A DNA stretch of 64,000 bases from a bacterium. Its GTDB lineage: Bacteria; UBP7; UBA6624; JBBIMK01. Positions 7,350 through 47,765 of the stretch are shown here, piece by piece. The first letter of the stretch is position 1; each line of letters opens with the position of its first letter. The notes below the pieces were generated by a model. It saw only the letters and a list, made by a program, of their open reading frames with translations, was not told the origin of the DNA and ran no database searches. The stretch covers positions 6-64,005 of the forward strand of contig JBBIMK010000009.1 of NCBI GenBank assembly GCA_037444445.1, given 5' to 3'. The position numbers were made by a program, and so were the translations under genes.

Positions 7350-7364
7350 TACGGTGGAAGACGG

Positions 7365-17766: not shown

Positions 17767-17802
17767 AATCCATTGCAAGATGACAGCGGAGGTGGTTTTA
17801 TC

Positions 17803-22572: not shown

Positions 22573-22616
22573 TCTCCCTGGGAGTGAAAAGATGCGGAGA
22601 ACGAAGGCTTCTTTCT

Positions 22617-22865
22617 TCAGTGTTCTATATCCTCTCGGGCTTCCCAGTAAGGGCAGTAGAAGGGATGGTCCTGAAGGAGCACCCGTCCATCAGAGTTTCT
22701 CATCACCGGCTCCATCATCGGATATTCCTCTCGCTTCCATCCTAAAAGATGGCAGGTTTCCTCTACACACAAAGTATCCTCCAGCCCTTGAACAGCATAC
22801 CCGCGCTCTTGAATCTCAAAATGTCTGCAGTTGATGCAGTGCTGAAGGATGGGTTTCATACCCAT
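22617..22865 (-). CDS. Small cysteine-rich protein (possible metal-binding), translationally coupled to the FBP aldolase/phosphatase gene
   Basis: 82 aa with Cys at CxxC (CINC), CVEETC, CPY. Its ATG overlaps the upstream TGA (TGATGG). Function unknown. Confidence 0.4.
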   Translation of the reverse strand: MGMKPILQHCINCRHFEIQERGYAVQGLEDTLCVEETCHLLGWKREEYPMMEPVMRNSDGRVLLQDHPFYCPYWEAREDIEH

Positions 22866-23965
22866 CAGGATTCTTTCTGAAACCGGTCCTTCAGCCTTTC
22901 AATAATTTGTGGGATGGTGGTGTATTCCATATTGGGAAGGGAAAGGCGGTGGGGTTCAAAAGGTCCATGAAGGCGCATATAAGAGGCAATTTCACCGGCA
23001 AAATAGCGGGAATTGTCAAAGGCAGGGTCGTCAAACAGGTCCACAGGACCCACCAGTTGCCCATTCGCCAGTTGAAATCCTGCAGAAATCACCCGGGGAG
23101 GTCCGTCAAATCGGCTGGTCTGGGCTTCCCGAAAGGGCACGGGGAAAAGGGGTCCAAAGTGGCTCCCCCGATTCCACCCTTCCACCAGATGAGGGAAGGC
23201 AAAGGCTTCCAGGATTTCCCCCACAGCAGGCAACCCGGCTTGCGCCCGAACTATCAGAACCGGGTCATCCTTCCCTACATACTTCCCCGCTATCAAAGCA
23301 AGTTTCTGCGTGGAGGCAGAGGCGCAAACCATTCCACCTCTGGTGAATACCTTCCGGACAAGATACCGCTCCACTGCTCCAATCAATGCCAGCAAATCAT
23401 ACATCTCTTCCGGGCAGTTGAGGCGAATGCTCTGATTTTCTTCTATATCCAGGATTTCAAACTGGAAGCCATCGTGCATTTTGGGGTCAATCACCAGGCC
23501 AGCGGTGCAGAAAGGGTCGGCAAACATACGATATACAGGAAGATTCCAGGCGCCCGGTGAACATTTATCCCCCATAAAAATCACCACCGGCTCTGATGGG
23601 CGTTCCTCTATTTCCATCTCCGCTACCCCCGGTCCTAAACCTTTCACATTCCCGCTGAAGGCATCTTTCAGAAGGTCCTGCCCTGCCCCATACAACTTCA
23701 ACTCCTTCGCCACCTCCGTGCATCCGACAAAAGTATCCCAGGCGATTTTGTGAATCTGCTCGCTATTTTCACCCATTTTATGAGTGAGAATCAATTCCAG
23801 GTCATCCCCGCAGGACATCACACAAAAATCAACAAGAACCCCTTTTTCCTTGTGAGCCTGAAGTTGCTCCTCAGCGGTGTCAATCAGGTCTTCGTGGATA
23901 TGCGAGTGCCCCACATACCCCCCCACATCTGCTTTAATCACACTCAGCGTTATTTTTTCAGCCAT
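22865..23965 (-). CDS. fbp: Bifunctional fructose-1,6-bisphosphate aldolase/phosphatase (archaeal-type, class V FBPase)
   Basis: N-terminus MAEKITLSVIKADVGGYVGHSHIHEDL matches the hallmark FBPA/P N-terminus, with family-wide similarity over about 366 aa. The internal ATG at 23965 was chosen; AAGGAGGG Shine-Dalgarno lies 7 nt upstream. Confidence 0.88.
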   Translation of the reverse strand: MAEKITLSVIKADVGGYVGHSHIHEDLIDTAEEQLQAHKEKGVLVDFCVMSCGDDLELILTHKMGENSEQIHKIAWDTFVGCTEVAKELKLYGAGQDLLKDAFSGNVKGLGPGVAEMEIEERPSEPVVIFMGDKCSPGAWNLPVYRMFADPFCTAGLVIDPKMHDGFQFEILDIEENQSIRLNCPEEMYDLLALIGAVERYLVRKVFTRGGMVCASASTQKLALIAGKYVGKDDPVLIVRAQAGLPAVGEILEAFAFPHLVEGWNRGSHFGPLFPVPFREAQTSRFDGPPRVISAGFQLANGQLVGPVDLFDDPAFDNSRYFAGEIASYMRLHGPFEPHRLSLPNMEYTTIPQIIERLKDRFQKES

Positions 23966-24497
23966 CCGGCATCCCTCCTTTCGTTCTTCGTCCATACTCA
24001 TTATAACAAATTGTGGATGAGCGTTCGCAGTAACCCGCCCGAGATTTTTCCTCACTCTATGAAATGAAACTTTATCCCGACCCACTCGTGATTCCTGAAA
24101 CCAGGTATGTCATTTTCTGATTATTCCTATTGTCTACTTCCTGAATTTCGTGGTTGAGGATATTCCTCACCTCCTTTCCATAAGAGGAATGGAAGAATAC
24201 GCACGAGGGATTTTACCTGACCATTTGACTTTGGAATAATTTTGTAGTCATATTATCGTGCTCATGCTATGAGATTTGATAAGGGAAAGAGGAAGCCTTT
24301 TATGACAATGAGGGGGCAGGGAGAAAGTGGTAGGGTGCCGGGTTTTATCTCCTCCTTATGCCTTTGCTTTTCTATATCTACCCCCCCCCGTATAATCGCC
24401 TTTTCAACCCTTTCTGCTGGCTCATCCCTAAAATTCCTCTCTTTTTGGGAACTTTCTGGCAAAAAAGGAAGTCCACTTTATCAGGAGGTGGTAAAAT

Positions 24498-26918
24498 ATG
24501 AAGCGAGGGAAGGTGGGAATTCTGCTGAAGGCAATCTGGGGCGCCTTCCTGTTGTATGCACTTTTTTCCTGCGGCGGAGGGGGTTCCGCTACTACACCTG
24601 CGCCTGCGGCCCGAAGCCAGAAAATAATAGTGCCGTTTTCGGCGGGAAGAGGTGGTTTGCCGAGCAGCTCCCATAGAACTGCAATGACGAACCCGGCTGA
24701 GAATGCGACAGATACAACCAGCTCATCCCTGCCTCCAGCGACCCTGACACAGGAAGGTTTGCTGGAAGGACCGCCGGATTGGCGAGTCAACGAGCATCTT
24801 CCCTCTGTCCCGTTCCCGGAGTCGTTTCTCTGGGAGTTTGTGGATTCCCGGGGCCGCGCTTTCACGGAAACCGGCAGGGCTCACATAAATGTGCGGGAGT
24901 TCGGGCTTGTCCTCAGGGACTCCACGACACTGTTTCAATTGTCAGAACTGCTTCACCTCACGGATGCGTCCATATTGGGCGCAAGCCCAAAGATGAAGAT
25001 GCTTTTTGTGCGCCTCAAACAGCGACGGAATCTGGACGAATATCTCGCCTTGCTGAATCGTTTAGAAGAAGACCCCCGAGTGGAGAGGGTGATTCCGCAA
25101 GTGACTGTGTACAAAGCCTCAGCGCTCGTTCCTACTGATGAAGCAGACTGGCGCTGGGAAGTCAGTCCAGGTGGAGGCAACTGGAATTTTGAGGCAGTAA
25201 GAGTGCCCCAGGCATGGAGCCTTATGGGCTGGATTTACAGGAGACAGAATCTGGTCACCGGGGGCATCGTAGACGAGGGTTTTTTCCTTCACCCAGACCT
25301 CTCAATGAACCATGAGGAATTGAACGGTGCCAATCCAAGACTTGACAATCATCATGGAACCGGAGTTGCTGGAGTGTGGGCTGCCCTATGGGGCTCCACC
25401 GTGCAACAGAGATGGCTGGACGGAGTGCTACCGAACTCTATTCTGACCCTGTGGGGTTTAACGGGGCGAAATGTGCCGCCCCGCGGACCCGGTGACCCTC
25501 GCTGGCCCCCTCCCTGCGACATTTTCGGGCCCCAGGATGACTACGGCAAACAGTGTCTCTTCTGGCTCCAATTGTTAGATGACCTTTTCTCACAGAACAA
25601 GTTTCTGGACCTGCACCCGGAAATCAGCGTCCTGAATCTCAGCATCGGATATGGGTGTTTGTTCGCAGGCGATGCGGCGGATCCTCCCGGTAACCCTCCT
25701 GACGAGCGAGCCCGTCAAATCGCTGAGATGCTGGGCAGGGATTTTGCGCACCACTTCCAGAGCCGGGCAGACACTCTTCTACTGTTCCAGGCTGCTATGA
25801 ACTGCTACCTGAGGCGCCTGGATGAAGCCGAGGACGATGCCCGCTGGAATTCTCCCTCCTGCTATGCGTCCATAGTGGGCGACCCCACCTCCAATCCCCC
25901 TGTGCCACCCCAACAAAACATCATCTGCGTGGAAGCCACGAAGAACGCGGCGGGTTATCCGCTCGCCGGTTTCTCCAATGTGAGCGGGCAACTCTCCGCC
26001 CCGGGAAATAGCGTCACAGTATTGCTTGGAGTAGATGAAACAGCCGGGACTTCCGGCACATCCTATGCCAGCCCGCTATCCGCCGGTGCGGCATCCCTTC
26101 TGAAGTCATTCCGTCCGAGCCTGACGGTGACGCAGATTCGTCAGGCGCTTCTGACCTATTCCCGCTCCACGCCGGCAAACCAGCCTGAACCTCGGCGCGC
26201 ACCGATGCTGGATGCCTTCTACGCTCTCACCGGGCTGGACCTGATGGCAGGAAATACCGATGTCCAGAGGGAACTGGTGGATGCGGATGATGGGACGGTG
26301 GACGGGAACCTGCGGATGAGGGTATTCACCAGCGACCCGAACCCGGATGATGTTCACGCCATCCCGCCCGGAGGAACAACCCCAGACCACCGACGCGGGG
26401 ACGGGTATGTGACCCCACGCGATTTCCGCACCTTCCGGGATGTCTTCCTTCAGGTTCGCTCTGTGGAGGATGCCAATCTCGCTCCGCTCATCTCTCTGGA
26501 CGGTTCTGCGACGCATTTCAAGAGGGATTTGAATATGGACGGATGTTTGAGGGCGAGGGCGGATGCCTGCGACCCCAGCACCAATCCCTGCGTCCCCGCC
26601 AATCCCCCACACCCGGTGGACATCCCTACTCCCACCAACTGCTCGGCAGAAACCGGCGCTCCGGTGGAGAATGTCTATCCCCGGTATGATTTCAACGGGG
26701 ATGGGAGAATCACGGCTAATGCGGTCAATCCCGCCTCCGGCGATGTGGCGCCGTTCAAGATTGACCCGGACACCCACTGCACCGGGCTCAACCAGCCTGC
26801 CGGATGTCTGCGGGATATAGATGTGATGGCGCAGGTGTGGGATGCCTCTTCCTGCGAGCTTCCCGCCGGAGAATCAGCCGGTTGCCCGTCAGCACTATAT
26901 AGAGAATGTGGGCAATGA
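24498..26918 (+). CDS. Subtilisin-like (S8) serine peptidase lipoprotein with C-terminal Ca-binding dockerin/EF-hand-like repeats
   Basis: GGAGGTG RBS, then a signal peptide with lipobox LFSC. S8 triad motifs are present: Asp region GGIVDEG, His HHGTGVAG, Ser GTSYASPLSAG. Downstream are D-x-D/N-x-D-G loops (YDFNGDGRI, DLNMDGCLRA). Confidence 0.75.
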   Translation: MKRGKVGILLKAIWGAFLLYALFSCGGGGSATTPAPAARSQKIIVPFSAGRGGLPSSSHRTAMTNPAENATDTTSSSLPPATLTQEGLLEGPPDWRVNEHLPSVPFPESFLWEFVDSRGRAFTETGRAHINVREFGLVLRDSTTLFQLSELLHLTDASILGASPKMKMLFVRLKQRRNLDEYLALLNRLEEDPRVERVIPQVTVYKASALVPTDEADWRWEVSPGGGNWNFEAVRVPQAWSLMGWIYRRQNLVTGGIVDEGFFLHPDLSMNHEELNGANPRLDNHHGTGVAGVWAALWGSTVQQRWLDGVLPNSILTLWGLTGRNVPPRGPGDPRWPPPCDIFGPQDDYGKQCLFWLQLLDDLFSQNKFLDLHPEISVLNLSIGYGCLFAGDAADPPGNPPDERARQIAEMLGRDFAHHFQSRADTLLLFQAAMNCYLRRLDEAEDDARWNSPSCYASIVGDPTSNPPVPPQQNIICVEATKNAAGYPLAGFSNVSGQLSAPGNSVTVLLGVDETAGTSGTSYASPLSAGAASLLKSFRPSLTVTQIRQALLTYSRSTPANQPEPRRAPMLDAFYALTGLDLMAGNTDVQRELVDADDGTVDGNLRMRVFTSDPNPDDVHAIPPGGTTPDHRRGDGYVTPRDFRTFRDVFLQVRSVEDANLAPLISLDGSATHFKRDLNMDGCLRARADACDPSTNPCVPANPPHPVDIPTPTNCSAETGAPVENVYPRYDFNGDGRITANAVNPASGDVAPFKIDPDTHCTGLNQPAGCLRDIDVMAQVWDASSCELPAGESAGCPSALYRECGQ

Positions 26919-27717
26919 TTCCGGGGACGAAAACAATGACCCCTTTCAATGCGACTCCACCTGGAGGTGGCAGCCCCGCCGATACCTCCTTGCTGACCGG
27001 AACAGCGACCAGAGAATAGATTACCTGTATTCCGTGGATTTACATTTTTCGGGGGCGGCGCTTCCCTCTTCAGGAGCCCCCTCTATTCTCATCGTTGTCA
27101 AATCCCGGATGCCGGATGGGAATAGGCAGGATGATGATGGAGATGGGATGATAGATGAACCCTATGACCGTTCCTTCACCCGGCACATTCGGATTCCTGC
27201 CAGTGAGTGGGCATCCCAGCGGCTGGTGCTCACCGTTCCTATCTATTCCCTCGTCGCACAGGACCCACCGCCGCCGGACCAGTTAGGGAGAATTCGTGTA
27301 TCGGTCAAAGGGGTGAGCATCCAGCCTTCTTGCTGGGAATATTTCCCCCTTCATTACGGGCAGGATGTGGCGGTGCCGCCCCGGCAGGGCGTTGACCCCG
27401 CCACCCCCTGCCCTTCCCCTCCCACCCGGGCCATACACCTCGGGGGTCCCAACGACCGGCTGTATAAAATCCTCACCTTACCTGACGGCGGTTATCTGGC
27501 GGTGGGCGGCACCTACACAATGGCAGGTGGAACCCCACCAGATATGTGGGTTTTCCGGCTGGGAAGCGATGGCAATGTTGTGTGGGCGAAAGCCTATGGA
27601 GACCCCCATATGGGCAACATTTATTTTGGCAAACAGGATAGCGCAACGACTGCCGCAATTATCCTTCAGGTTCCCTACAGACTCCAGCAAGCCTCTATAA
27701 TAGCCAGAAGCCAATAG
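26827..27717 (+). CDS. Probable frameshifted continuation of the S8 peptidase (Ca-binding repeat / beta-rich C-terminal domains), or a separate overlapping ORF
   Basis: Frame +1 relative to the peptidase. The first stop-free codon is at 26827, right after an in-frame TGA at 26824. It overlaps the peptidase ORF by about 90 nt and has no signal peptide of its own. It carries the same kind of acidic Ca-loop motifs (NDSGDENND, ADRNSDQRIDYL). Confidence 0.4.
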   Translation, partial: WRRCGMPLPASFPPENQPVARQHYIENVGNDSGDENNDPFQCDSTWRWQPRRYLLADRNSDQRIDYLYSVDLHFSGAALPSSGAPSILIVVKSRMPDGNRQDDDGDGMIDEPYDRSFTRHIRIPASEWASQRLVLTVPIYSLVAQDPPPPDQLGRIRVSVKGVSIQPSCWEYFPLHYGQDVAVPPRQGVDPATPCPSPPTRAIHLGGPNDRLYKILTLPDGGYLAVGGTYTMAGGTPPDMWVFRLGSDGNVVWAKAYGDPHMGNIYFGKQDSATTAAIILQVPYRLQQASIIARSQ

Positions 27718-27845
27718 CGATTGGCGAATGGCAGATTCAGAAACAGTGAGATTTTGCAGGCAACACAAGAGTGCAAACCGTCTCTGCACGCCCCTGCCTG
27801 ATATTCGTTTGATTCGTTGAATCCTGCGACCTTTGCTCCGAGCGA

Positions 27846-28451
27846 TTAAGGGTAATACTTGACCCGAACCCCTGCGAGGTAAGTGTCCACTATCGTTTTG
27901 GTTTTCAGGCTATTCGTCCGATAAACATAATATAACTGGTCTTTGATGTAAGGTTTAATACGCTCAAAAGTGAGTTCCGACGGCTTTAATCCGTAGGTCT
28001 TCATCAGAGTTTGGTTCCATACCTCTTTATTTTCCTCATAATATCTGCGAACCTCCTCATCCGTGGGCTCCAGCAGGGAACGAAAGAGAGCGTCTTTGAG
28101 CAATTGATTCCGGATATACTGGCGATAATCTTCGTCCGTTAAACCCCTTTCTTTCAGCCATTGCTGGTAGTGCTGGAGGTTCTGGAAGCGTTCCGAGATG
28201 TCTCGCGACAGGGCTTTATCCACCGTGGAATCCGAAACGCTGAAGCCCCGGGCGACCGCGGCGCGAACCAGGACAAAATCCTGCACATATTCGTCCAGAA
28301 ACCGCTGGAATGATGGGTCCTTTACCAGGTCCTCGGTTAGTATAGGAACCTCGTTAATCCACAGTATTGGACGGGCAGTGGGCCCACGGCACGAACCCCA
28401 TAAAACAAAAAAGGCTATGACCCCCAGCGGTTTCAAAACCCTCATTTTCAT
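27846..28451 (-). CDS. Periplasmic SurA-N-terminal-domain-like chaperone (no PPIase domain)
   Basis: Signal peptide, then a helical region resembling the SurA/PpiD N-terminal chaperone domain. Overlaps the upstream stop by 4 nt. Confidence 0.5.
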   Translation of the reverse strand: MKMRVLKPLGVIAFFVLWGSCRGPTARPILWINEVPILTEDLVKDPSFQRFLDEYVQDFVLVRAAVARGFSVSDSTVDKALSRDISERFQNLQHYQQWLKERGLTDEDYRQYIRNQLLKDALFRSLLEPTDEEVRRYYEENKEVWNQTLMKTYGLKPSELTFERIKPYIKDQLYYVYRTNSLKTKTIVDTYLAGVRVKYYP

Positions 28452-31279
28452 TTCTCCTCTCCCTCCTTAGAAATCGGGATAACCCCGGCATCCAGCCAGG
28501 GACTCCAGAAAAGTAAAAGACTGCCCCGCTCCATTGATGTCCCGCGATATGAAATTCTCATTCTTCTTTCCCCTTTTACTTCCTCCAGCCAGAGCACCAC
28601 CTCATTTCTCCCAATTTCCATGCCCTCCTCCGGGGTAAGACCTGTAATTCCATAAAATTCTACTCCTGTTGCATGGCGGATGTGAACACATAGAAAAGGG
28701 AGTGGCGCTCTTGGAACGAGGGAAAGGAAAAGAGAAGAGCCATTCACATCTGATTGAAATTCCGTTCTGACCTCCAGCAAAGAAGGAGAAAGGGAAGTGC
28801 AGGAGGCTGAGGTAGGCTTGCCCAGATGTCTATCGCGAAGGGCTTCCTCAGGAAACAGAGTGCACCGCACAGGAGGCTTTCCCTCTATCACGGGCTGAAC
28901 CACAGAGCGGAGATAATCACTCATAGGGAAATTCGCAGGAAGCAGTGGAAGAGGAGAAATTTCAGAGGCTTTCTTCAGGAGAAAATGGAATGGGAAAGCC
29001 GATGGAAGAATAGAGAAAGTTTTCATTCCAGGGGGTCGCAGAAGAGAAAAAACAGCGGTGGCAAACGGACTGTAAGCGGTAGGTTCTTCCGGCAGGAAGG
29101 CACCGGCTTTCGCTACCACGCCCTCATCCACTGCCTGCCCTTTCTCCTGCAGCGCTCTTAAAGCCAGTAGCGCCCATGCGGTGGCCTCTACATTTCCCTT
29201 CTTCATCGTTCGCAAAAAATGAAACCCCCCGTCCGACTGTTGAAACCGATAAAGCCAGCGGAGCAGGATAGAGTCGGAAAATTCCCTATCCGGGAGGAAG
29301 GAACGGGTGAGCAAATTCAGAAACGAAAAATCTTCAGAGCCTGCAGAAGCCGTAGAGACTTCCGCAATAGATTGAGAAAACAGGAGCGGTTTCCCTTCCA
29401 CTGAAAAGGCCCGGATGGTAATCGGCCAGGATGGGTCAACAGAATTCATCGGGAGAACCCTCTGGAATGAGGTTCTTTCGCCCTTCCGCAGGTCCACCCG
29501 CACCGGCACATCGCTACGAACCACCAGAGTGGGGTCTGAAACTGTGGAGGGTAAAAAATCCGCCTCCAGCCTTTTCTCCTGAGTATCAGCGATGGAAGAT
29601 AGGCGAACCTGAGTATAAATGCCCTCAGGAACCTGTAAAATTCGCGATGTGAATGCGTAAGAACCCCCCGCAGGCTCAATCAGGCTCAACCGATAATAGC
29701 CCGGCGAAGGTGGTAGCGAGATCCGTGTTTTCTCATCACCTGAAATCGGCTGAAGCAAAAATGCTGATGACAGTCCAGAGGATGAAAAGACAAAGGTGGA
29801 GTGCTTTTCCACTCTCAGGGTGGAAAGAGGAAGGGGAGGTGGAGTTCCCCCAAGGAACTCCGTCAGGCGGAAGGAAGGAGGAGTCAGTAAAAGCCATCCC
29901 TCTTCTACCTCCGGATGCTGAACCGTTAGCAGGGCTCCACCCAGAAGCACCTCCTCGGTCTGATAAGTCAAAGTCGGTGGCGGAATATTCGCCACCGGCA
30001 CGAAGGTCTGTTGAACCTGCAATCGGCCAGATTCCACCCATTCCTCACTCATCCAGAAGCCCGGTGCATAGGCTTCCGCAAGGGGCAGACGAACCTCCTG
30101 CCCCGGCTTGAAAATGCGAATGCCATCAGGCAAATAAAAATAAATCGTCTTGAAATCTGAAGGAGGCAAACTGTAAACCCCTCCGCTATTCAGGGAAGAA
30201 TCTTCCTCTCCGGTGAACTTCCAGAAATACTCCTCTCCATCTCCTTCAAGCCAGACAAAAGAATAGGGGCTGGATACAGTGGATAAGGGGGGTGCAAGAG
30301 TTATTTTCCCCGAAGTCCGGGAGTCAAAAATTCGGGTGGACGAAATCCATTCCTTTTCTCCATCTTTTATTCCATACACCGCAACCTGAAAAGGCCGGGG
30401 TGCACGGGGAAAGTAACTCAATCCCTCGCCGTCCGAGGTTAACGGTGGAAGTAGAAGAAATCGGGAGGGCTGGATGATTTCCACCCTGTAAGGCTCCCTC
30501 CCATACCCCTCCAGTTGCACTTCAATTTCTTCATCAAAAGGCTGGGGAAGGTGAAAAAACTGGAGTAAGGAAGAAACGGGAGAAAAGTAGAACAATCTCC
30601 GGGAAGAATCAAAAATCCTGAAAGAGCGGTGCTCTCCACCCCGCAGGAGTAAAGAAACTGCCCTCTCATCAACGGTATAGACCCCATCCGGAGAAACGCC
30701 CTCAGGAGCCGATGGAATTTCTATCGGAAGTTCATCTATGTCTTGCCCTTTCTGAACCCTGAGGATAGAGCCTGCGGGAACCATATCCAGTGAAACTTTT
30801 CCGCCTCCATCCGTTAGCCCGAATAGAAGTTTTTCCTGCTGGAAGAAGAGAGAAAAGGACACACTTCCCACCGGTTTTCCTGTTCTTCGCTCCACCACTT
30901 CCAGATAGAAATATCGCCCTGTTGGGTGGAGTATCATAGATAGGGAAGTAATCAAAAATGTCCGAACCGCTTCGCAGGCGCCGGATTGGAAAATTGTGCG
31001 ATAATATCCTCGTTCCAGGGGCTTCTTCAGCGGTCCCGGGAAGGGCCCGGAATAGAGAGACTCAAATCCTCCCTCATCCTCCAGAAATTCTCCCTCCCAT
31101 TTTTCTACTTGAATCGTGAACGGTGGAGGGCAGGGAGGTTCACCCAGGGAAATCGTTTCACCGGGTGAAAAACGCCAGAGAGATGAAGCAGGGGTGGAAA
31201 CAGAAGCCACAGAACCTGCCATTAGAACCGCTAACCACCAGAGTGGAATTCGTGAAATTGAAAATGGGAGGGGTGTCAA
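28448..31279 (-). CDS. Large secreted alpha-2-macroglobulin-like / prenyltransferase-squalene-oxidase-repeat (alpha/alpha-toroid) protein
   Basis: 943 aa with a signal peptide. N-terminal beta-rich modules. C-terminal region has the QxxDGGF repeat (LLRWLYRFQQSDGGFHFLRTMKKGNVEATAWALLALRA) characteristic of the A2M thioester domain and of terpenoid-cyclase-like toroids. No CxEQ thioester motif was found. Confidence 0.45.
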   Translation of the reverse strand: MTPLPFSISRIPLWWLAVLMAGSVASVSTPASSLWRFSPGETISLGEPPCPPPFTIQVEKWEGEFLEDEGGFESLYSGPFPGPLKKPLERGYYRTIFQSGACEAVRTFLITSLSMILHPTGRYFYLEVVERRTGKPVGSVSFSLFFQQEKLLFGLTDGGGKVSLDMVPAGSILRVQKGQDIDELPIEIPSAPEGVSPDGVYTVDERAVSLLLRGGEHRSFRIFDSSRRLFYFSPVSSLLQFFHLPQPFDEEIEVQLEGYGREPYRVEIIQPSRFLLLPPLTSDGEGLSYFPRAPRPFQVAVYGIKDGEKEWISSTRIFDSRTSGKITLAPPLSTVSSPYSFVWLEGDGEEYFWKFTGEEDSSLNSGGVYSLPPSDFKTIYFYLPDGIRIFKPGQEVRLPLAEAYAPGFWMSEEWVESGRLQVQQTFVPVANIPPPTLTYQTEEVLLGGALLTVQHPEVEEGWLLLTPPSFRLTEFLGGTPPPLPLSTLRVEKHSTFVFSSSGLSSAFLLQPISGDEKTRISLPPSPGYYRLSLIEPAGGSYAFTSRILQVPEGIYTQVRLSSIADTQEKRLEADFLPSTVSDPTLVVRSDVPVRVDLRKGERTSFQRVLPMNSVDPSWPITIRAFSVEGKPLLFSQSIAEVSTASAGSEDFSFLNLLTRSFLPDREFSDSILLRWLYRFQQSDGGFHFLRTMKKGNVEATAWALLALRALQEKGQAVDEGVVAKAGAFLPEEPTAYSPFATAVFSLLRPPGMKTFSILPSAFPFHFLLKKASEISPLPLLPANFPMSDYLRSVVQPVIEGKPPVRCTLFPEEALRDRHLGKPTSASCTSLSPSLLEVRTEFQSDVNGSSLFLSLVPRAPLPFLCVHIRHATGVEFYGITGLTPEEGMEIGRNEVVLWLEEVKGERRMRISYRGTSMERGSLLLFWSPWLDAGVIPISKEGEEK

Positions 31280-32457
31280 ATACTCCCGACCATGGCATCA
31301 TCCGGCCGGTCAAACGGATAGACTTCAATTTCCGTCTTTTTCGCTTCCCGCAGAACCTGAAGTTTTAACTTATCATCCGGTCCTAACTGTCGGATGTTCA
31401 GCGCCAGGTCTCGTGGACTTTTATACAGGATTTCCTCGGTCACCAATTGGCCAGCGGGGGATTGGCGCGTGAACTTGGCGCCCAGGATAATGTCACCCAC
31501 CCGAAGCCCACGCTTGGCCGCAGGTCCTTTGAGATCCACAGTATCCACGATAATTCCTGCATCCTTCTCTATCCATTCTTCAGGCATACCGGCGAAAATC
31601 CGAAGGAGTTTCGTGGTGGGTGAAGCGATGACCCCAAACCAGGGGTGATAGATTTTCCGTCCCGCAATTAAATCAAAAGCATACTGCCGAAGGTCATTGG
31701 AAGGGAATACAATGTTCAAATTCTGCACTTCCCGCACCAGTTCTGTGGGAATGATAGTGGATTGCTCCACTGCCAGGGCATTGATGCCCAGCACCTCACC
31801 TCGCATATTCGCCAGCGGTCCTCCCAGATTGTATAGGTAAAAGCGAGCATCCGTCTGAATCACCTTCGGAACGAAGTAATCCCAGTTCATGTAGTAATCC
31901 CGAACGGAACTAATGACACCCACGGATGCGGCTACCGTTTCCCCCAGCGGATATCCGAGAGCCAGCACGGTTTCTCCCGCTTGAACTGCGGAGGAATCTC
32001 CGAAGGTAACAGCGGGGAAAGGACCCGGGCCCAGAATCTGGATGATGGCGAGGTTATTCCAGCGGTCATAATTCGCCAGACGGGCGGGCAGAATCCGCCC
32101 GTCGTGGAGGCGAACCTGCATTTCCTTCGCCCCCTTCACCTGTGTATACAGCGTAACCGCATACCCCTCGGGTGATACGATGAATCCTGAAGTTCCACCC
32201 TGGGCTATCAGACGCTGGAAGGAGCGACGAAACACGGGCGACTGATATAATGTCGTCACCACTTCCACAGACACCACCGCCGGCGCTACCTTCTCCACTG
32301 CTTCCACGAAGGCAAAACTTCCAGGGTCAAACACATAGGTGGGAGTCATTGCAGAGCAAAAAAGCAACAGGCTTACTCCCACCACCCAGAAGATGGAACT
32401 CTTCTTCCCCCGGCTATCCATCTTTTCACCCCTTTCCCGCCATTGGCTCCCAGCCAT
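31276..32457 (-). CDS. HtrA/DegP-family pseudo-protease with PDZ domain (catalytic triad replaced)
   Basis: Trypsin-fold + PDZ architecture. The His box reads VTLYTQV (no His). The Asp box reads NNLAIIQI (Asp to Asn). The Ser box reads YNLGGPL instead of GNSGGPL (Ser to Leu). Confidence 0.7.
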   Translation of the reverse strand: MAGSQWRERGEKMDSRGKKSSIFWVVGVSLLLFCSAMTPTYVFDPGSFAFVEAVEKVAPAVVSVEVVTTLYQSPVFRRSFQRLIAQGGTSGFIVSPEGYAVTLYTQVKGAKEMQVRLHDGRILPARLANYDRWNNLAIIQILGPGPFPAVTFGDSSAVQAGETVLALGYPLGETVAASVGVISSVRDYYMNWDYFVPKVIQTDARFYLYNLGGPLANMRGEVLGINALAVEQSTIIPTELVREVQNLNIVFPSNDLRQYAFDLIAGRKIYHPWFGVIASPTTKLLRIFAGMPEEWIEKDAGIIVDTVDLKGPAAKRGLRVGDIILGAKFTRQSPAGQLVTEEILYKSPRDLALNIRQLGPDDKLKLQVLREAKKTEIEVYPFDRPDDAMVGSI

Positions 32458-32466
32458 TTCTTTGCC

Positions 32467-33669
32467 TCAAACGGTTCCCCCGGCGCCCGCAGGGGGCTGG
32501 GGCTGCTCTTCTATCCGCAAAGTCACCAGTCGGAACACACCGCCCCGCCGAATGAAAAATTCCACCGAGTCCCCCACTGACATACTCCGAATCATCTTCC
32601 GAAGTTCAAAGGCATCTTTGTATACTTTCCCGTTAACGGAGTAAATCACATCCCCGGCGGCAAGCCCCGCCTGCTCCGCCGGCGAGCCCGGAAAAACCCC
32701 CTTGATTTTTACCGGATATTTCATTCCCTTGTAAAATTCATCTAATCTCAGAATCTCTTCCTTGATATAACGCTGAATATCCTGCTGTGGATTAAACCCC
32801 TGCTCTACACCGGGCCAGCCACCGATATAAGTAGGATTCCTCTCCTGAGGGGTCCAGAAGATGAAGAGCCCTGCCCACGGGTAAATCACCCGCCCGTATT
32901 TTAAGATGTCTTCCGCACTCTTCTTCGCATCGTTGATGGGGTAGAAAAGATTTTGTGCCTCCATCGCACTGGAACCCCAGGAGTTAATCCCAATCTGCTC
33001 GCCCCGGGCATTAAAAGTGGCTCCCCCGCTGTTACCGGCATTGATGGTGGCCGTGGATTGAATTATCCAGGTGAGTTCCTTACCATAGTCCGGATTATTG
33101 AAAACATCCTCCGCACTCATCAGCGGAAATGGATATTCAAAATCCTTCACAATACCCACCGTTACAGTGTTCACCAGCTGGAACTCTTTGAGCCGGAATC
33201 CCGGGTTGAATTGCTCAATCATAAATCCTAAGGAGGCATCGCCGGGAGAGCCAATGGCGAAAACCAGGTCATTTTTCTGAATCTTCTCAGAATCCGCCAG
33301 GTCTACATACGGGAAGACTCTGGGTTCCGGGGTGATGATTTTCACCAGGCCGAAATCCACCTTCACATTAGTGCCCACCACTTTCCCGGGAAGCACCTCC
33401 CCATTATCCAGAGTAATATCTACGAGTTTAGCGGAGGTGACCACATGCCAGTTGGTGTAGATATAGCCATCCGGCGAGACGATGGAGCCGCTTCCTCCAC
33501 CCCCCCCTGCTCCACCGGGGCTCCGATGTAACACCCGAACCATGGCAGGCTTCACTTTCGCCACCACCGGCGTCAGGTCCATCGTCGCTATCCCTTCCGC
33601 TCCCTGCTCCTCCGTTGCTTCCAGCGACAGCACCATAAAAGAAAGCAAAAGGATAGAAAGTTTTTTCAT
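32467..33669 (-). CDS. htrA: HtrA/DegP-family serine endoprotease with PDZ domain (catalytically intact)
   Basis: Signal peptide MKKLSILLLSF. His box YTNWHVV, Asp box VDFGLVKI, Ser box GNSGGATF, C-terminal PDZ. The ATG at 33669 overlaps the upstream stop (ATGA). Confidence 0.8.
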   Translation of the reverse strand: MKKLSILLLSFMVLSLEATEEQGAEGIATMDLTPVVAKVKPAMVRVLHRSPGGAGGGGGSGSIVSPDGYIYTNWHVVTSAKLVDITLDNGEVLPGKVVGTNVKVDFGLVKIITPEPRVFPYVDLADSEKIQKNDLVFAIGSPGDASLGFMIEQFNPGFRLKEFQLVNTVTVGIVKDFEYPFPLMSAEDVFNNPDYGKELTWIIQSTATINAGNSGGATFNARGEQIGINSWGSSAMEAQNLFYPINDAKKSAEDILKYGRVIYPWAGLFIFWTPQERNPTYIGGWPGVEQGFNPQQDIQRYIKEEILRLDEFYKGMKYPVKIKGVFPGSPAEQAGLAAGDVIYSVNGKVYKDAFELRKMIRSMSVGDSVEFFIRRGGVFRLVTLRIEEQPQPPAGAGGTV

Positions 33670-34706
33670 CTTTTCATCCCTCCTTTCCACTCGGCGATGG
33701 TCACATCTCGCTCAAGGATGCGGCCATCCCGCCAGATTTTCACTGAAAAAGTATCCCCGATATTCAACTGATTCACAGGAATCCAGAAGTCCTGAGGCAG
33801 GGTAAGAGATTTCCCCCCCAGTTCCAGCAGGAAATCGTTGGCACGAATCCCCGCTTTATCGGCTGGACTCCCCTCATCTACGAAAGTAACAAATAGTCCA
33901 TAATCATACGGGTATCCGTAGCGGGTTCGCTGGGTGTCATCCACCACCAGCAAAGATACCCCGGTCCAGGGGCGGGCGAATCGCCCCTTCTCCACTATCT
34001 CCTTCACCACTCTCCGCACCGTATTCACCGGAATGGCAAAGTGCAAGTATAATTCCTTATATTGCTGACGCAGGAAAGTAAGAACCCCCACCACTTCTCC
34101 TCGGAAATTCAAAAGAGGTCCCCCCTGCATTCCGTAGGAAATAGGGGCATCCGTTTGAATAAAGGTAGTCACTCCACCTTCCGCCCAGGGTCCCGCGGTG
34201 GGCAGTGCAGAAAGTATCCCGAAAGAAGGTGTGAACAGCCCATTTGAACTCACACCGACGGCAATCAGAGGCTCACCCACTCTCGGTGATTCGTTCTCGG
34301 GCAGGAAAGGAACCGCGGTCAGTTTCTCCGCCCGGATGCGAACCACTGCCACATCCGTCGGCTCATCCATTCCCAACAGCACCCCCTCATAACTTTTCCC
34401 ATCTGAAAGAATCACCTGGATATAACGGGCATACTTCAAGGTTTGAGCCGTCGTGAGTATATATCCCTTTTTGTCATCAAAAATGAATCCAGAGCCTACT
34501 TCCGTAAGGGTTGCGTCACCCAGAATCCCTCGCTTACGCTCTAAAAAACGAACCTTCACCTGCACCAGAGCCGGTAACACTCCGTTGGAAATATCATTCA
34601 TCCGCTGGGCATAAGGATGTATTTCCCGGGGCACGGTGGTGCCGAAAAGGAACACCATACAGACCCCCCCCACCAGTCCAGCCATTTTCAGCCTGAGTCC
34701 TTTCAC
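33666..34706 (-). CDS. HtrA/DegP-family pseudo-protease with PDZ domain (His and Ser replaced)
   Basis: The His box reads LTTAQTL (His to Gln). The Asp box PTDVAVVRI is retained. The Ser box reads GMQGGPL (Ser to Gln). Signal peptide and PDZ domain are present. Confidence 0.7.
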   Translation of the reverse strand: MKGLRLKMAGLVGGVCMVFLFGTTVPREIHPYAQRMNDISNGVLPALVQVKVRFLERKRGILGDATLTEVGSGFIFDDKKGYILTTAQTLKYARYIQVILSDGKSYEGVLLGMDEPTDVAVVRIRAEKLTAVPFLPENESPRVGEPLIAVGVSSNGLFTPSFGILSALPTAGPWAEGGVTTFIQTDAPISYGMQGGPLLNFRGEVVGVLTFLRQQYKELYLHFAIPVNTVRRVVKEIVEKGRFARPWTGVSLLVVDDTQRTRYGYPYDYGLFVTFVDEGSPADKAGIRANDFLLELGGKSLTLPQDFWIPVNQLNIGDTFSVKIWRDGRILERDVTIAEWKGGMKR

Positions 34707-34719
34707 CGCATTCCTCCTC

Positions 34720-35091
34720 TCATTCCAGTAATCCTGTAACTTCCTGTTTTCCGGAGACCTTCAAATTATTGATCACATCCCTCACCTTCTCCACACCTCG
34801 GGCAAGGGCCTCTGCTTTTTTCTTCTGCTCCTCCGTTTCCAGCTCCCCATCCAGGATGACCACCCGATTCTTCACCGTAATTTTCACATTTTTCAACTGA
34901 AGGGCAATATAGGGGTCAGAAGCGAGGCTCTCCAGCACAGTGGTCTGGATGGCCATATCAATGCTTTCCACCGCCATATGCTGGGGCGCCAGAGAAGTTC
35001 TCTCCCGCATCGTCCTCCCCTTCCCCTCACACGCCACTCCCATTCCTATCGCCAGCACCAGCGCCACAAGTACACTCCCTCTCATCGCCAT
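34720..35091 (-). CDS. BON-domain (OsmY-like) periplasmic protein
   Basis: 123 aa with a signal/lipobox-like N-terminus. BON-domain pattern: LKNVKITVKNRVVILDGELETEEQKKKAEALARGVEKVRDVINNLKV. Confidence 0.7.
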   Translation of the reverse strand: MAMRGSVLVALVLAIGMGVACEGKGRTMRERTSLAPQHMAVESIDMAIQTTVLESLASDPYIALQLKNVKITVKNRVVILDGELETEEQKKKAEALARGVEKVRDVINNLKVSGKQEVTGLLE

Positions 35092-35151: not shown

Positions 35152-36492
35152 TCAGACGGAAAGCCCCCGCAAAAGGCTTCGGTCAGGGGTAAACGCCGAG
35201 GCCGCCTGGGCTGCATAATTCTGCACCAGGTAATATCCCACCCCTCCCACCACCAGCGCAATGAACACCACAGAAATCAGCAAGGCTCCCACGGCATTCC
35301 CCCGTCGCATATGCCCGAATTCCGCCAGGGCCACGATGGTCAAATACAGCCCCCACAGAAATAGAATTCCTGCAAGCCCATACAGGACAGCGGAGCCCGA
35401 AAGAAATGCCATGTCCCCCGCATATCCAGAGAGAAAAAAAGGCACAAACAGGAAGGATGACCCCTTCCAGACCCAGGGAAAGGTGGTATATTGTCGGAGT
35501 ATCACCAGAGCGAGGAAGAAACTCACGGAGTAGACCAGCCAGAGAGCCAGAACAAGGAAAGGAATGAGGTAAGGCCCATAAGTGAGCATTTGCTCATACG
35601 GCTGGAGAGCACGGCGCCGAACATCATACAGAAGCGCCTGCCTCATATCCTCATCCTTCGTCATCTGGTTAATGGCTGACACAGATTGTATCTGAGCCTG
35701 AGTCATAACCATCTGGTCAAAGTTTGCCATCAAATTGTCCGCATTTTGAAACATTCTTGCCGAGGTCAGAGAGCCCGTAAGCAGGACGATAAACAGGGGG
35801 TAAAGGAAAGTGGCTCCTCGGGCGGTGTCCCGGAAAACATCCCCGGGTGCTACCACCAGCCGATAAAGGTCCACCCAGAAATCTTTCCACAAAAAAATCA
35901 AAATAATCAACGCCAGAAGAACCATAGAGAAAGCACCCATATTCCGTCCCGTGACCGTCCAGAATGGGGTTGCCCAGACCAAACGGTAGTTCCCGGTGAA
36001 TTTCAGCGTCCGAAAAATTTGGTCCACTCCTTTAACATCGGATGAGAACTCTGCCGCCGGCGCCTCATACCGGAAGAGATAATCCTTCAGAACCGTTGGA
36101 ATCGCTGCCACATATATCCGCACTGAAGCGCTCTCCTTCCGAGCCTCCAGGATTTTCACATACTGCCCATCCACCCGTAAAAGCCCTGCATCCGAAACCT
36201 TGAACCCCTCCTTTTCCAGTCCTTCCCGGAGAGCCTTCACTTTCCGGTCCGTTGCCTCCACAGGCCGGTCCAGGAGCTCTTCCTCGGTGGTAATGGTCAA
36301 AGTGGCTTTTCCAGAGAATTTCAGCACGAGAGTTCCCTTCTCCTCGGTAACGGAGAGGGAGGAAGGGTGACGAAAAAAAAGCCCCCATTCTGTGTTGTAA
36401 TAAGGGGTCGTGCCAAAATTCTGCAATACCGTGCACCCGGACAGCACTCCCACAAAAGATAACAAAATCCAACCTCTCCTCTTCGCCATCAC
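35152..36492 (-). CDS. Lipoprotein with periplasmic domain and C-terminal multi-TM (Yip1-like) domain, function unknown
   Basis: Lipobox LSGC, then about 180 aa that are predicted soluble, then 5 or more hydrophobic helices. Confidence 0.45.
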   Translation of the reverse strand: MMAKRRGWILLSFVGVLSGCTVLQNFGTTPYYNTEWGLFFRHPSSLSVTEEKGTLVLKFSGKATLTITTEEELLDRPVEATDRKVKALREGLEKEGFKVSDAGLLRVDGQYVKILEARKESASVRIYVAAIPTVLKDYLFRYEAPAAEFSSDVKGVDQIFRTLKFTGNYRLVWATPFWTVTGRNMGAFSMVLLALIILIFLWKDFWVDLYRLVVAPGDVFRDTARGATFLYPLFIVLLTGSLTSARMFQNADNLMANFDQMVMTQAQIQSVSAINQMTKDEDMRQALLYDVRRRALQPYEQMLTYGPYLIPFLVLALWLVYSVSFFLALVILRQYTTFPWVWKGSSFLFVPFFLSGYAGDMAFLSGSAVLYGLAGILFLWGLYLTIVALAEFGHMRRGNAVGALLISVVFIALVVGGVGYYLVQNYAAQAASAFTPDRSLLRGLSV

Positions 36493-36640
36493 TGATGAAA
36501 GTGTATGACGAAATCACAAAAAAATCAAGGGATTCCTGATTTCCACCTCAGAGGATGTTACAGGATGCCAGTGTGGAGCCTTTCCCCTCTTGGCGGGGCG
36601 GAGATAGAATCCCCCCTGAATGTATCACCGAGGAATGCGG

Positions 36641-36666
36641 GTGGGCGAGCCGACAGGCTCGCCCAC
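36641..36666 (-). terminator. Strong stem-loop downstream of groEL (possible terminator/processing site; no U-tract)
   Basis: GTGGGCGAGCC gaca GGCTCGCCCAC: perfect 11-bp stem, 35 nt after the groEL stop. Confidence 0.3.
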
Positions 36667-36701
36667 GAAACCTGCCTCACCCCTCGGAAAGACAGCGGGT
36701 T

Positions 36702-38324
<1,623 letters not shown>

Positions 38325-38340
38325 TCATCCCTCCTTTTGC

Positions 38341-38631
38341 TTAATCTTCCACGATGGCGAGAATGTCATCTTCCCGGAGGATTAAGTATTCATCCCCCTT
38401 ATACCGAACCTCATTCCCGCCATATTTGGAAAACAGCACCTTCTGCCCTTTCTTCACTTCCATGGAGGCTCTCTGCCCATTCTCCAAAAGCCTTCCGGGT
38501 CCCACCGCAATCACCTCACCGAGGATGGGCTTATCCTTCGCTACATCCGGTAACACGATGCCGCCTTCACTGACGGCTTCCTTCTCCAGACGCTTCACCA
38601 CAACCCTGTCTCCTAACGGCTTTAACGCCAT
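38341..38631 (-). CDS. groS: Co-chaperonin GroES (Cpn10)
   Basis: 96 aa, LKPLGDRVVVKR...GEVIAVGPG...VKKGQKVLFSKYGG. Confidence 0.95.
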   Translation of the reverse strand: MALKPLGDRVVVKRLEKEAVSEGGIVLPDVAKDKPILGEVIAVGPGRLLENGQRASMEVKKGQKVLFSKYGGNEVRYKGDEYLILREDDILAIVED

Positions 38632-38667
38632 TCTCTCTACCTCCTGTTAAAATTTTATTTTCCATTT

Positions 38668-38694
38668 TAGCACTCTCGTGCCTTGACCGCTAAT
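38668..38694 (-). promoter_or_regulatory. CIRCE operator (HrcA binding site) upstream of groES
   Basis: On the gene strand it reads TTAGCGGTC-N9-GAGTGCTAA (consensus TTAGCACTC-N9-GAGTGCTAA). One arm is perfect, the other has 2 mismatches, with 9-nt spacing. A TATAAT-like -10 lies immediately upstream on the same strand. Confidence 0.6.
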
Positions 38695-38707
38695 AATTAT
38701 AGAAGAT

Positions 38708-39361
38708 TCAAAAACCCTGTGTCAAGTCCTTCCAGTTACCTCTGGTTTCCCACTCATATTCCAGAATTTGAATGGTTGCTCCTTCCTTCTGAAAGGTTTT
38801 CAGCAGGCGGAAGTTCCACTCGGCCGCCGCCAGCACCGGATTCCCCTGCCAGGGCTCCTGATAGGAAAATCCATAATGGGGATGATAGGTGAGCATCATC
38901 AACCGATACCCGGGGTATCGGATGGGACGAGGAACCACCAGCCCCAGCAAATCCACCACTTCGCAGTCGCAGTAATACCCTAAATACCCGATGTCTGTGG
39001 AAGAAACGGAAATGGGGGGCTGACCATTCTCCTTCAGCCACTCCGCCGCTTCCTTCTTCAATTCACTCTTCGTTTTGTGTTCCTGAAGTTCATCCCACAG
39101 CCCGGCGGAATGCTCCAGAAAAGACGGAAGCAAGGCAATGCCAGCCAAAACAAGCCCGAATCCAGCCGCTGGCTTCCATTTCCCCAGCCATTGCCATACT
39201 TTCCCTGTTCCGATACTCACCAGCAAAAGATAAATCGGATAGATGGACATAAAGTACCACGGCGCTATGAGAGCGTGGGTGATGGAGAAAAACACTAAAA
39301 AAGTCCAGTGCCACACCATCAGCAACAGCCCTTCATTTCTTCTCGCCACGATAGAATACAT
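38708..39361 (-). CDS. C-terminal fragment of a GT39/GT83 (PMT/ArnT-like) membrane glycosyltransferase
   Basis: Its frame is open upstream through the C8 tract at 39455-39462 and would join the N-terminal fragment after a 1-nt change in that tract. Confidence 0.55.
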   Translation of the reverse strand: MYSIVARRNEGLLLMVWHWTFLVFFSITHALIAPWYFMSIYPIYLLLVSIGTGKVWQWLGKWKPAAGFGLVLAGIALLPSFLEHSAGLWDELQEHKTKSELKKEAAEWLKENGQPPISVSSTDIGYLGYYCDCEVVDLLGLVVPRPIRYPGYRLMMLTYHPHYGFSYQEPWQGNPVLAAAEWNFRLLKTFQKEGATIQILEYEWETRGNWKDLTQGF

Positions 39362-41460: not shown

Positions 41461-41510
41461 TCCTCATCGCCCCCTTTGCGTTTCATCTTCATTTTAATTA
41501 TACTCTATTT

Positions 41511-41549
41511 ATAAAAATCAGGGGGGTCTCCTTCAGGAGGAGACCCCCC
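41511..41549 (-). terminator. Rho-independent terminator after the first pilin gene
   Basis: On the minus strand: GGGGGGTCTCC tcctgaa GGAGACCCCCC (11-bp GC stem) followed by TGATTTTTAT. Confidence 0.6.
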
Positions 41550-41589
41550 CATTATACGGGCGCCCCACAGAATTGGAAATGAACTTTCT

Positions 41590-42684: not shown

Positions 42685-42817
42685 AAAAACACCTCCTTTT
42701 TTCCGTCAGGGAGAAAAGGAAGCCCGCTTTTTCAGGGAGAACCCTGTGGGGCGCCCTTTCTTTTTTATCTCTCTTCAATGCAGGCTTCCCTTCCTCTCTG
42801 CACGGAATTTTTATTCC

Positions 42818-43987: not shown

Positions 43988-44081
43988 CGCGTATCACCTC
44001 CTTTCAGATTCTTGTTGTTCTCTTTCATTTTTTGGGTTCCTTCGTTTTACCGCCTTTCATCCTCGGATAACGAAGTAGCCT

Positions 44082-45221: not shown

Positions 45222-45285
45222 CTGATATCACCTCCTTTGAATTGGATTTGAAAGTGTTTCCGGTTCTTTTTCATTTTTTCATCCC

Positions 45286-46509: not shown

Positions 46510-46604
46510 TTCTTATCCCTCAGGCAATTTTATATTACCACAGGCAAAAAAACTTGTCAAGTGGGGGGGAGGAAAAAGGGGTAAAAAGATGGAAATGTGC
46601 GTAT

Positions 46605-47747: not shown

Positions 47748-47765
47748 TTCAGCACCACCTCCATA

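Follow-up and report, generated by a model that had tools for sequence, protein, structure and literature searches.

Why would a protein with a distant likeness to the bacterial alpha-2-macroglobulins (A2Ms) be encoded, stop codon upon start codon, between a triplet of HtrA genes and the gene of a SurA-like chaperone? The question is raised by a stretch of 64,000 nucleotides from contig JBBIMK010000009.1 (assembly GCA_037444445.1; GTDB lineage UBP7), called the window below, in which a minus-strand open reading frame (ORF) of 943 codons with a TTG start lies at 28448..31279. An earlier reading made from the sequence alone (the sequence-only reading) had described its product as a secreted, A2M-like protein of alpha-alpha-toroid repeats lacking the CxEQ thioester. 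In our analysis the gene is real, carries an export signal and belongs to a conserved cassette, and its product probably descends from, or shares ancestry with, the bacterial A2Ms. The function that we favour, with a probability of about 45%, is that of a non-covalent clamp or platform subunit in an envelope quality-control machine formed with the HtrA proteins and a SurA-N lipoprotein.

The gene and its product

The ORF is closely packed against both neighbours. Its TTG start, closely preceded by the Shine-Dalgarno sequence GGGAG, lies within ATTTGA and overlaps by 4 nt the end of the HtrA gene before it (HtrA3), whose stop is TGA; its own TGA stop lies within ATGA and overlaps by 4 nt the ATG of the downstream SurA_N-like gene, which has an AAGGAGG of its own. 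The sequence-only reading was thus right about the 943-residue frame and both overlaps, and also about the neighbours, there being three Trypsin_2 plus PDZ genes upstream and a SurA_N_3 gene downstream. The gene call deposited at NCBI is 924 aa long and begins at Met20. In a homologous locus (L001, where the protein is 79% identical) the ATTTGA junction, the open upstream frame and the hydrophobic N-terminus are all kept and no ATG stands at the position of Met20, so that the longer TTG-start form with a cleavable signal peptide is the better call. Hydropathy is highest at aa 11-29, the hydrophobic N-terminus recurs in L001, P0004 and P0006, and the signal is of type I, not a lipobox; the protein had been called secreted, and these features agree. 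It has five cysteines, four of which form two pairs kept across the family that would fit an oxidising periplasm, and the CxEQ motif occurs nowhere in the 943 residues, as the sequence-only reading had said.

Between the target and L001 the nonsynonymous rate (dN) is 0.127 and the synonymous rate (dS) 0.560, giving a dN/dS of 0.227, and in no 60-codon sliding window does dN exceed dS. Since gene order is in addition kept in homologues down to 22% identity, the gene is genuine and codes for a protein that evolves under purifying selection; a non-coding or spurious ORF was rejected.

In an exhaustive HMMER search among 1.84 billion representatives the family proved to be extremely rare, amounting to five 50%-identity clusters: the window protein's own, P0003 (E 1e-88), and P0004, P0005 and P0006 (E 1e-17 to 1e-26). 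A word-indexed search of 5.8 billion clusters returned only the target itself and P0002 (79% identity), the latter from Joint Genome Institute (JGI) sample 3300010938, a metagenome of the Chocolate Pots hot spring (PMC6137239). Where the source of a family member is recorded, it is a hot-spring or unclassified bacterial assembly. No new relatives were found in GTDB representative genomes or JGI metagenome contigs with either the target or the neighbouring BON-domain protein as seed, the contig scans returning a single contig that was already known. The family alignment holds six known sequences in all, the homologues being 79%, 31%, 25%, 23% and 22% identical to the target, and conservation along it is too low throughout to seed a scan. 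Searches of Pfam, NCBIfam and PDB sequences gave nothing significant for any of the six, and phmmer and hmmsearch runs with the target against PDB gave chance matches to RecJ and CD94 only. The sole recurrent hint in Pfam is Prenyltrans (PF00432), at an E of about 0.08 and 12.7 bits (cut-off 26.5 bits), which two of the six members match over some 50 residues (aa 668-719). Internal repeats in the target come down to a short 'PGxYR' strand motif common to aa 71-95 and 507-531. PADLOC had no match for the target and only generic protease-domain matches for the HtrA proteins; a known anti-phage defence system was rejected.

A probable remote relationship to the bacterial A2Ms

AlphaFold 2 (AF2), run with the six-sequence alignment, produced a model with a mean predicted local distance difference test score (pLDDT) of 54 and a predicted template modelling score (pTM) of 0.32, in which about seven beta-sandwich units make up more than 75% of the protein. 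The confident parts are the beta-sandwiches of aa 33-185 (pLDDT 70-87) and the C-terminal one from aa 834 (70-83); the beta domains at aa 296-610 are of intermediate confidence, the roughly five helices at aa 652-745 of low confidence, and aa 187-217, 232-294, 474-506, 610-654 and 748-830 are predicted to be disordered. Compared with the PDB by Foldseek, the model matched nothing but members of the A2M/thioester-containing protein (TEP)/complement superfamily at ranks 1 to 17, with E values from 3e-18 to 4e-12. First came ECAM of E. coli (5a42; E 3.2e-18), followed by C3, C4, TEP1r, frog A2M, Salmonella A2M (4u48), C5 and CD109, with unrelated immunoglobulin-like (Ig)/FN3 arrays weaker at about 1e-9 to 1e-10. 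The template modelling scores (TM-scores) are low, 0.11-0.17, as is to be expected where inter-domain geometry is not predicted. A model of the same sequence built from a two-sequence alignment (pLDDT 30), which served only as a negative control for Foldseek, had no match better than E 0.14, so that the signal stems from the predicted structure and not from composition.

Profile alignment with hhalign points the same way. The probability was 2.8% with YfhM as the sole template and 2.5% with a shallow enterobacterial profile, neither being significant; the YfhM homologues listed for the latter were all 83-98% identical, and with it the best domain pairs already lay on one diagonal. We then used a diverse A2M profile assembled from plasmid-borne homologues, its eight A2Ms coming from E. 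coli, Citrobacter, Rhizobium, Sinorhizobium, Azospirillum, Fulvitalea, Fusobacterium and Deinococcus, and the scores rose sharply with the matches still colinear. The family now gave one colinear local alignment of 219 columns (E 4.7e-5, probability 68%) that joins positions 512-730 to ECAM 980-1285, that is, the A2M domain of the MG7 type (MG, macroglobulin) running into the opening hairpins of the thioester domain (TED). At the level of single domains aa 110-190 matched bMG3 (probability 92.3%, E 5.7e-7), aa 645-760 the TED (41%, E 2.8e-4) and aa 505-612 the A2M domain (E 1.1e-3). Overall, real queries scored 24-55, reversed ones 10-29 and column-shuffled ones at most 20; for bMG3 the figures were 38.6, 12.4 and at most 15.2, and for MG7-TED 55.1, 28.6 and at most 19.6. 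An 'A2M' (MG7-type) domain followed by a TED, in that order, is thereby suggested with moderate, not decisive, strength. In the alignment YPYGCLEQ of ECAM stands opposite GSEDF of the target, so the thioester position is without a cysteine (CxEQ is present in all but one of the eight reference A2Ms), and of the TED only hairpins equivalent to ECAM 1220-1285 align.

Both lines bear on whether the resemblance might be convergent, the target being a periplasmic multi-Ig-domain protein unrelated to A2Ms whose beta-sandwich arrays and generic 'QxxDGGF / TAWALLAL' alpha-hairpin repeat merely imitate them. Such a protein would account for the absence of any Pfam, NCBIfam or PDB sequence match, for the low model confidence with its TM-scores of 0.11-0.17, and for the non-significant alignment to the shallow profile of ECAM homologues. 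It sits badly with scores that climb on a diverse template and remain colinear, with reversed and shuffled controls that fall far lower, and with 17 best PDB matches that are all A2M, TEP or complement proteins, and we consider it very unlikely.

The target is nevertheless no ordinary A2M, having about half the normal length and a reduced TED, with CUB, bait region, MG1/MG2 and MG10 undetected. By hhalign neither MG1/MG2 nor MG10 equivalents were detectable, and the C-terminal beta-sandwich had no profile match to MG10 or CUB. The variable disordered segment at aa 474-506 could, speculatively, be a bait-like linker. 'A2M-like' in the sequence-only reading holds at the level of remote homology, from Foldseek on a low-confidence model and colinear hhalign matches; the target matches no A2M Pfam model, nor was a CUB or bait domain recognised in it. 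'Alpha-alpha-toroid repeat protein' was too strong: a complete alpha/alpha6-toroid TED takes about 280 aa, and here some five helices cover aa 652-745, fewer in P0004-P0006, whose segment is shorter by about 46 further alignment columns. Of the MG and TED-like domains that structure prediction had been expected to reveal, the model contains the MG array and a TED-like part only as this remnant of about five helices.

The same remnant disposes of the fold that the sequence-only reading had named as contrary to its own view, a prenyltransferase or glycoside hydrolase. An alpha/alpha-toroid enzyme of that kind, or a terpene cyclase, could appeal to the Prenyltrans match in two of the six members; yet its 12.7 bits fall far below the cut-off, the helical region spans about 100 aa with five helices (smaller in P0004-P0006) against a toroid of about 300 aa with its six hairpins, and the protein is secreted and mostly beta-sandwich. 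We regard this reading as effectively refuted. The target is best described as a divergent A2M variant outside the curated A2M families.

A conserved cassette with one live and two dead HtrA proteins

The target is the sixth of seven co-directional genes, all with export or anchor signals (Table 1). The full seven-gene order is found in the window, L001, L003 and L004, although the big protein of L003 and L004 is only 25% identical to the target, and the first gene (Yip1-like) keeps its position in L001, L003 and L004. In L006 the big gene stands between HtrA3 and the SurA-N gene; on the short contigs of L002 and L005 the big gene is followed by the SurA-N gene. In all six loci, then, the big gene is immediately followed by the SurA-N gene, the two overlapping by 4-41 nt, and it is preceded by an HtrA gene in every contig that reaches far enough upstream, so that the linkage to HtrA and SurA-N genes is conserved across clades sharing only 22-31% identity. 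Every orthologue of the SurA-N protein carries a signal that ends in Cys. Between the window and L003 identity is 74% for the BON protein, 44-52% for the HtrA proteins, 36% for the membrane protein, 32% for the SurA-N protein and 25% for the big protein.

Aligned to E. coli DegP, only HtrA2 has an intact catalytic triad; HtrA1 has Gln, Asp and Gln, and HtrA3 has Thr, Asn and Leu at the three positions. The pattern of all three is common to L001, L003 and L006, with Ile or Arg at the Ser position of HtrA3 in other clades. Since the same residues are lost in other clades, the triplet is read as one protease with two conserved pseudoproteases, a point that the sequence-only reading had missed.

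The C-termini of two of the HtrA proteins are conserved as well. HtrA2 ends in GAGGT[VIL] (32467-32484, minus strand) and HtrA3 in G[ST] plus a hydrophobic residue (31276-31293, minus strand; AMVGSI, AFPGTV, AAVGSF), in all clades, and HtrA1 has no such conserved tail. Speculatively, the tails of HtrA2 and HtrA3 could be PDZ-binding and join the paralogues into a hetero-oligomer.

Bacterial A2M genes have characteristic neighbourhoods, pbpC for type I and mag- or yfaSTAPQ-type partners for type II. The ORFs of 150 aa or more that were scanned across the 64-kb window included no pbpC-like transglycosylase/transpeptidase and no DUF1175-type gene, nor were such genes found in L001-L006, whereas the reference A2M loci do show pbpC or DUF1175. 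Among these references the Deinococcus plasmid A2M (L015, 1317-7100; 1,484 aa) has CTEQ yet adjoins a DUF1175 gene, a neighbour that we take to be associated with type II operons, and the Azospirillum A2M (L012) has no CxEQ at all; the split into types I and II by thioester and neighbourhood is therefore not clean. The lack of both thioester and pbpC, to which the sequence-only reading had given weight, is no rarity in itself, MagD and other type II A2Ms having neither (PMC5764988).

Table 1. Coordinates of the target gene, its parts, the other cassette genes and the adjoining heat-shock genes in the window
Feature	Position	Strand	Basis
Mini-A2M-like secreted protein	28448..31279	-	ORF and translation; conserved TTG; purifying selection; Foldseek and hhalign
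Signal peptide, ~aa 1-25: Arg10, hydrophobic IPLWWLAVLMAGSVASV, likely cleavage after VAS	31205..31279	-	Hydropathy; cleavage site inferred by eye
Array of ~6 MG/Ig-like beta-sandwich domains, aa 33-625	29405..31183	-	AF2 secondary structure and confidence; Foldseek
Beta-sandwich aa 110-190, homologous to bacterial A2M MG3	30710..30952	-	hhalign with controls; pLDDT 70-87
Variable predicted-disordered segment aa 474-506, just before MG7-like domain	29762..29860	-	pLDDT 23-27; poorly conserved in six-sequence alignment
Most conserved beta domain, aa 512-609, with LPPSPGYYRL, EGI and D-x-P-x-R motifs	29453..29746	-	Aligns with Pfam 'A2M' (MG7-type), ECAM 980-1087; invariant columns
Vestigial TED-like helical segment aa 645-745, QQSDGGF ... 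NVEATAWALLAL, thioester position GSEDF	29045..29347	-	hhalign; weak Prenyltrans; ~5 helices
C-terminal beta-sandwich aa 834-935, conserved Cys pair C806, C827 before it	28475..28780	-	pLDDT 70-83; Cys alignment
Gene 1: lipoprotein-like signal (LSGC), ~160-aa soluble domain, polytopic Yip1-like membrane domain	35152..36492	-	Yip1 E 2e-4 (weak); hydropathy
Gene 2: BON-domain lipoprotein	34720..35091	-	Pfam; most conserved cassette member, 74% identity to L003
Gene 3: HtrA1, predicted pseudoprotease (His to Gln, Ser to Gln, Asp kept), PDZ	33666..34706	-	DegP alignment; Pfam/NCBIfam
Gene 4: HtrA2, intact His/Asp/Ser triad, large loop insertions, PDZ	32467..33690	-	DegP alignment; Pfam/NCBIfam
Gene 5: HtrA3, predicted pseudoprotease (His to Thr, Asp to Asn, Ser to Leu), PDZ	31276..32457	-	DegP alignment; Pfam/NCBIfam
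Gene 7: SurA-N-only lipoprotein, 201 aa, without peptidyl-prolyl isomerase (PPIase) domain	27846..28451	-	SurA_N_3 E 1.4e-8; coupled to target via ATGA
Terminator-like hairpin after SurA-N gene, probable end of transcription unit	27771..27789	-	Consensus match only
groES (38341-38631) and groEL (36702-38321)	36702..38631	-	Directly upstream of cassette, same strand
Sigma-70 promoter TTGACA-18-TATAAT (38725-38696), then CIRCE/HrcA operator (38667-38693)	38667..38725	-	Perfect promoter; CIRCE with 2 mismatches

What the protein may do

The reading that we favour, at the odds given at the outset, starts from a secreted, non-enzymatic MG array, with a vestigial TED and without thioester, whose coupling to a chaperone-type lipoprotein and a pseudoprotease is kept over deep divergence, and it is from this combination that we infer a stoichiometric subunit. 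The mini-A2M would be exported to the periplasm and, being translationally coupled to its neighbours, made in fixed proportion with them; there it would join the SurA-N lipoprotein and an HtrA hetero-oligomer of one active and two regulatory pseudoprotease subunits. In one version it would capture unfolded envelope proteins for HtrA2, the single active protease; in the other it would enclose and restrain HtrA2, in the manner of the thioester-less type II traps such as MagD. Gene order thus suggests, for the protein, a role as inhibitor or as substrate-delivery partner of the HtrA paralogues.

The position of the cassette 3' of a groESL operon under CIRCE/HrcA control suggests that the machine might be used under heat or envelope stress. 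The groES-groEL pair adjoins the cassette in the window and in L001, not in L003; a CIRCE (controlling inverted repeat of chaperone expression) element precedes groES in L001 also, and an hrcA gene is present in the window (7260-8396, plus strand). Two elements lie in the spacer that separates the cassette from groEL: a GC-rich hairpin without T-tract (GTGGGCGAGCC-TGTC-GGCTCGCCCAC; 36640-36670, minus strand), which follows groEL, and after it, just before the first cassette gene, a weak promoter-like site (TTGATT-17-TACACT). With these two elements in place, co-transcription of the cassette with groESL is possible rather than proven.

Several observations weigh against a clamp or platform of A2M descent. 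The curated A2M models (MG2, A2M, A2M_BRD, TED_complement, bMG1-10; NCBIfam) match none of the six members, even at E<=10, whereas E. coli YfhM matches eleven A2M-specific models. The hhalign probabilities are modest except for bMG3, itself a common beta-sandwich type; the bait-region domain is unmatched by profile (scores of at most 15.5), CUBa and CUBb score at background, and on either side of the helices the model has only short segments of low confidence (aa 610-650 and 746-830). The model as a whole is of low confidence, so that it resolves the tandem MG domains poorly, and its helical region is poor; the TED remnant is not large enough for the closed toroid by which canonical A2Ms drive their conformational trap. 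The target evolves faster than all other cassette members (25% against 32-74%), which also fits a client or surface protein. As to the stress connection, the L003 cassette lies away from groESL with no CIRCE element found there, and the possible separate promoter and the hairpin between groEL and the cassette speak against a common transcript.

The rapid evolution brings in two other explanations. One is a defensive, type-II-like A2M that traps foreign periplasmic proteases and has come to the cassette through a shared envelope-stress regulon, with no HtrA partnership. The remote A2M homology from Foldseek and hhalign speaks for it, as does the existence of non-covalent, thioester-less A2Ms (PMC5764988), and fast evolution with a variable disordered segment at a bait-like position fits an arms race. 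But the reduced TED and undetected CUB make a canonical spring-loaded trap doubtful, no sliding window has a dN/dS above 1, and the tight coupling to the HtrA3 and SurA-N genes, which persists at identities as low as 22%, points to a shared complex. We judge a defensive trap unlikely. The other is a dedicated client, a structural or surface protein with an Ig-like array for whose folding, export or maturation the cassette would be a private biogenesis pathway. A client of this sort could well be the fastest-evolving cassette member, a long beta-sandwich array with disordered linkers encoded between a protease gene and a chaperone gene, and generic Ig/FN3 arrays also match the model, if more weakly. 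However, the colinear MG7-into-TED profile match is specific to A2Ms and not to adhesins, no anchoring motif (SLH, beta-barrel, sortase signal or lipobox) was found in the target, and the internal sequence repeats typical of adhesins are missing; we hold this explanation to be quite unlikely.

The clamp or platform reading may be carried further: the cassette could encode a hitherto unknown periplasmic machine, in which a minimal thioester-less macroglobulin would be an obligatory subunit that cages or gates the hetero-oligomeric HtrA, with the SurA-N, BON and Yip1-like lipoproteins as its tethers to the membrane. The A2M fold would then regulate the cell's own protease, or deliver substrates to it, and not neutralise foreign proteases, and the half-size form would be either stripped-down or ancestral-like. 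We hold this further reading to be quite unlikely.

Comparison with known systems

With the type I A2Ms (ECAM/YfhM and SaA2M; 5a42 and 4u48) the target shares a periplasmic location, a tandem MG array, a helical TED-type segment and a C-terminal beta-sandwich, and ECAM, its best Foldseek match, is colinear with it in bMG3, A2M/MG7 and the first TED hairpins. It differs in length (about 920 aa against 1,650 aa), in having GSEDF where ECAM has the CLEQ thioester, in its some five helices against the 12-helix TED toroid of ECAM, and in being without a recognisable CUB, bait-region domain, MG1/MG2 or MG10, without a lipobox and without an adjacent pbpC. With the type II A2Ms (P. aeruginosa MagD and E. 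coli YfaS) it has in common the missing thioester and a multi-gene operon with envelope or membrane products. MagD traps its protease non-covalently, and its operon partners are needed for stability and membrane association (PMC5764988). MagD, however, has the full size of about 1,500 aa and is detected by A2M models, neither of which is true of the target, and its partners are MagA, B, C, E and F in place of the protease/chaperone set of HtrA, BON and SurA-N proteins found here.

An active HtrA encoded beside a catalytically dead paralogue is also known from magnetotactic bacteria, in which the dead MamO has a non-proteolytic role and works with the active MamE (PMC4794232). MagD and this pair supply a precedent for each half of the clamp or platform reading. 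That pair serves magnetosome biomineralisation, and it has neither two dead paralogues nor A2M-like, SurA-N or BON partners; the sequence similarity between the MamE/MamO models and the cassette HtrA proteins is only generic. The DegP/DegQ-SurA-Skp network of Proteobacteria likewise combines a PDZ-bearing HtrA protease with a SurA-type domain, acts on unfolded envelope proteins and has stress-linked expression. Its genes are dispersed, its HtrA proteins are active homo-oligomers, its SurA has PPIase domains, and no macroglobulin-like subunit takes part.

Other features of the window and its host

The host is a diderm with lipopolysaccharide (LPS) in its outer membrane, as LptF/G and LptB (60508-62417) and an SLH-domain protein encoded in the window indicate; no rRNA gene lies in the window. 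The latter, of 538 aa with an N-terminal SLH domain (17773-19389, plus strand), is possibly a tether between outer membrane and peptidoglycan, as in some diderm bacteria. A fructose-1,6-bisphosphatase of the FBPase_3 family adjoins a multihaem cytochrome (Cytochrome_C554 / MtrC-like) at 21256-24085 on the minus strand; the two would fit a thermophilic, possibly iron-cycling host, and the Fe-rich Chocolate Pots hot spring is the source of the close homologue.

The interval from the cassette to the FBPase_3 gene contains, on the strand opposite to the cassette (24498-27717, plus strand), an 806-aa ORF of the S8 subtilase family and an overlapping 291-aa ORF without family match. The pair is absent from the otherwise syntenic L001, and its GC content is 0.57, compared with about 0.51-0.53 around it; the region is probably an insertion. 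On the far side of groES a cluster like those for type IV pili or type II secretion systems (T2SS; 40339-49568, minus strand) encodes three T2SSE ATPases, a single T2SSF platform protein and three proteins of unusually large size (364-389 aa) with N-terminal methylation (prepilin) motifs; in L001 groES is preceded by these same genes. Beyond it, at 49605-54022 (minus strand), are a MoxR-type AAA ATPase (AAA_3), a DUF58 protein and a transglutaminase-like TgpA protein (807 aa), a trio that is recurrent and poorly understood.

Significance

The protein belongs to an uncultured lineage and to a family of six known sequences, and what is said here of its function is drawn from sequence and gene order. 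Even so, a mini-A2M together with one live and two dead HtrA proteins in a conserved cassette is a combination likely to surprise specialists. The one-live/two-dead trio, if correctly read, would be a new example of pseudoprotease-regulated HtrA function. If the favoured reading is right, the target would be the smallest and most divergent protein of the A2M superfamily described, and the first A2M relative hard-wired to an HtrA/chaperone operon and not to PBP1c or mag-type partners. It would mean that a macroglobulin scaffold can work without thioester, CUB or full TED, and it would link this scaffold to endogenous envelope proteostasis.

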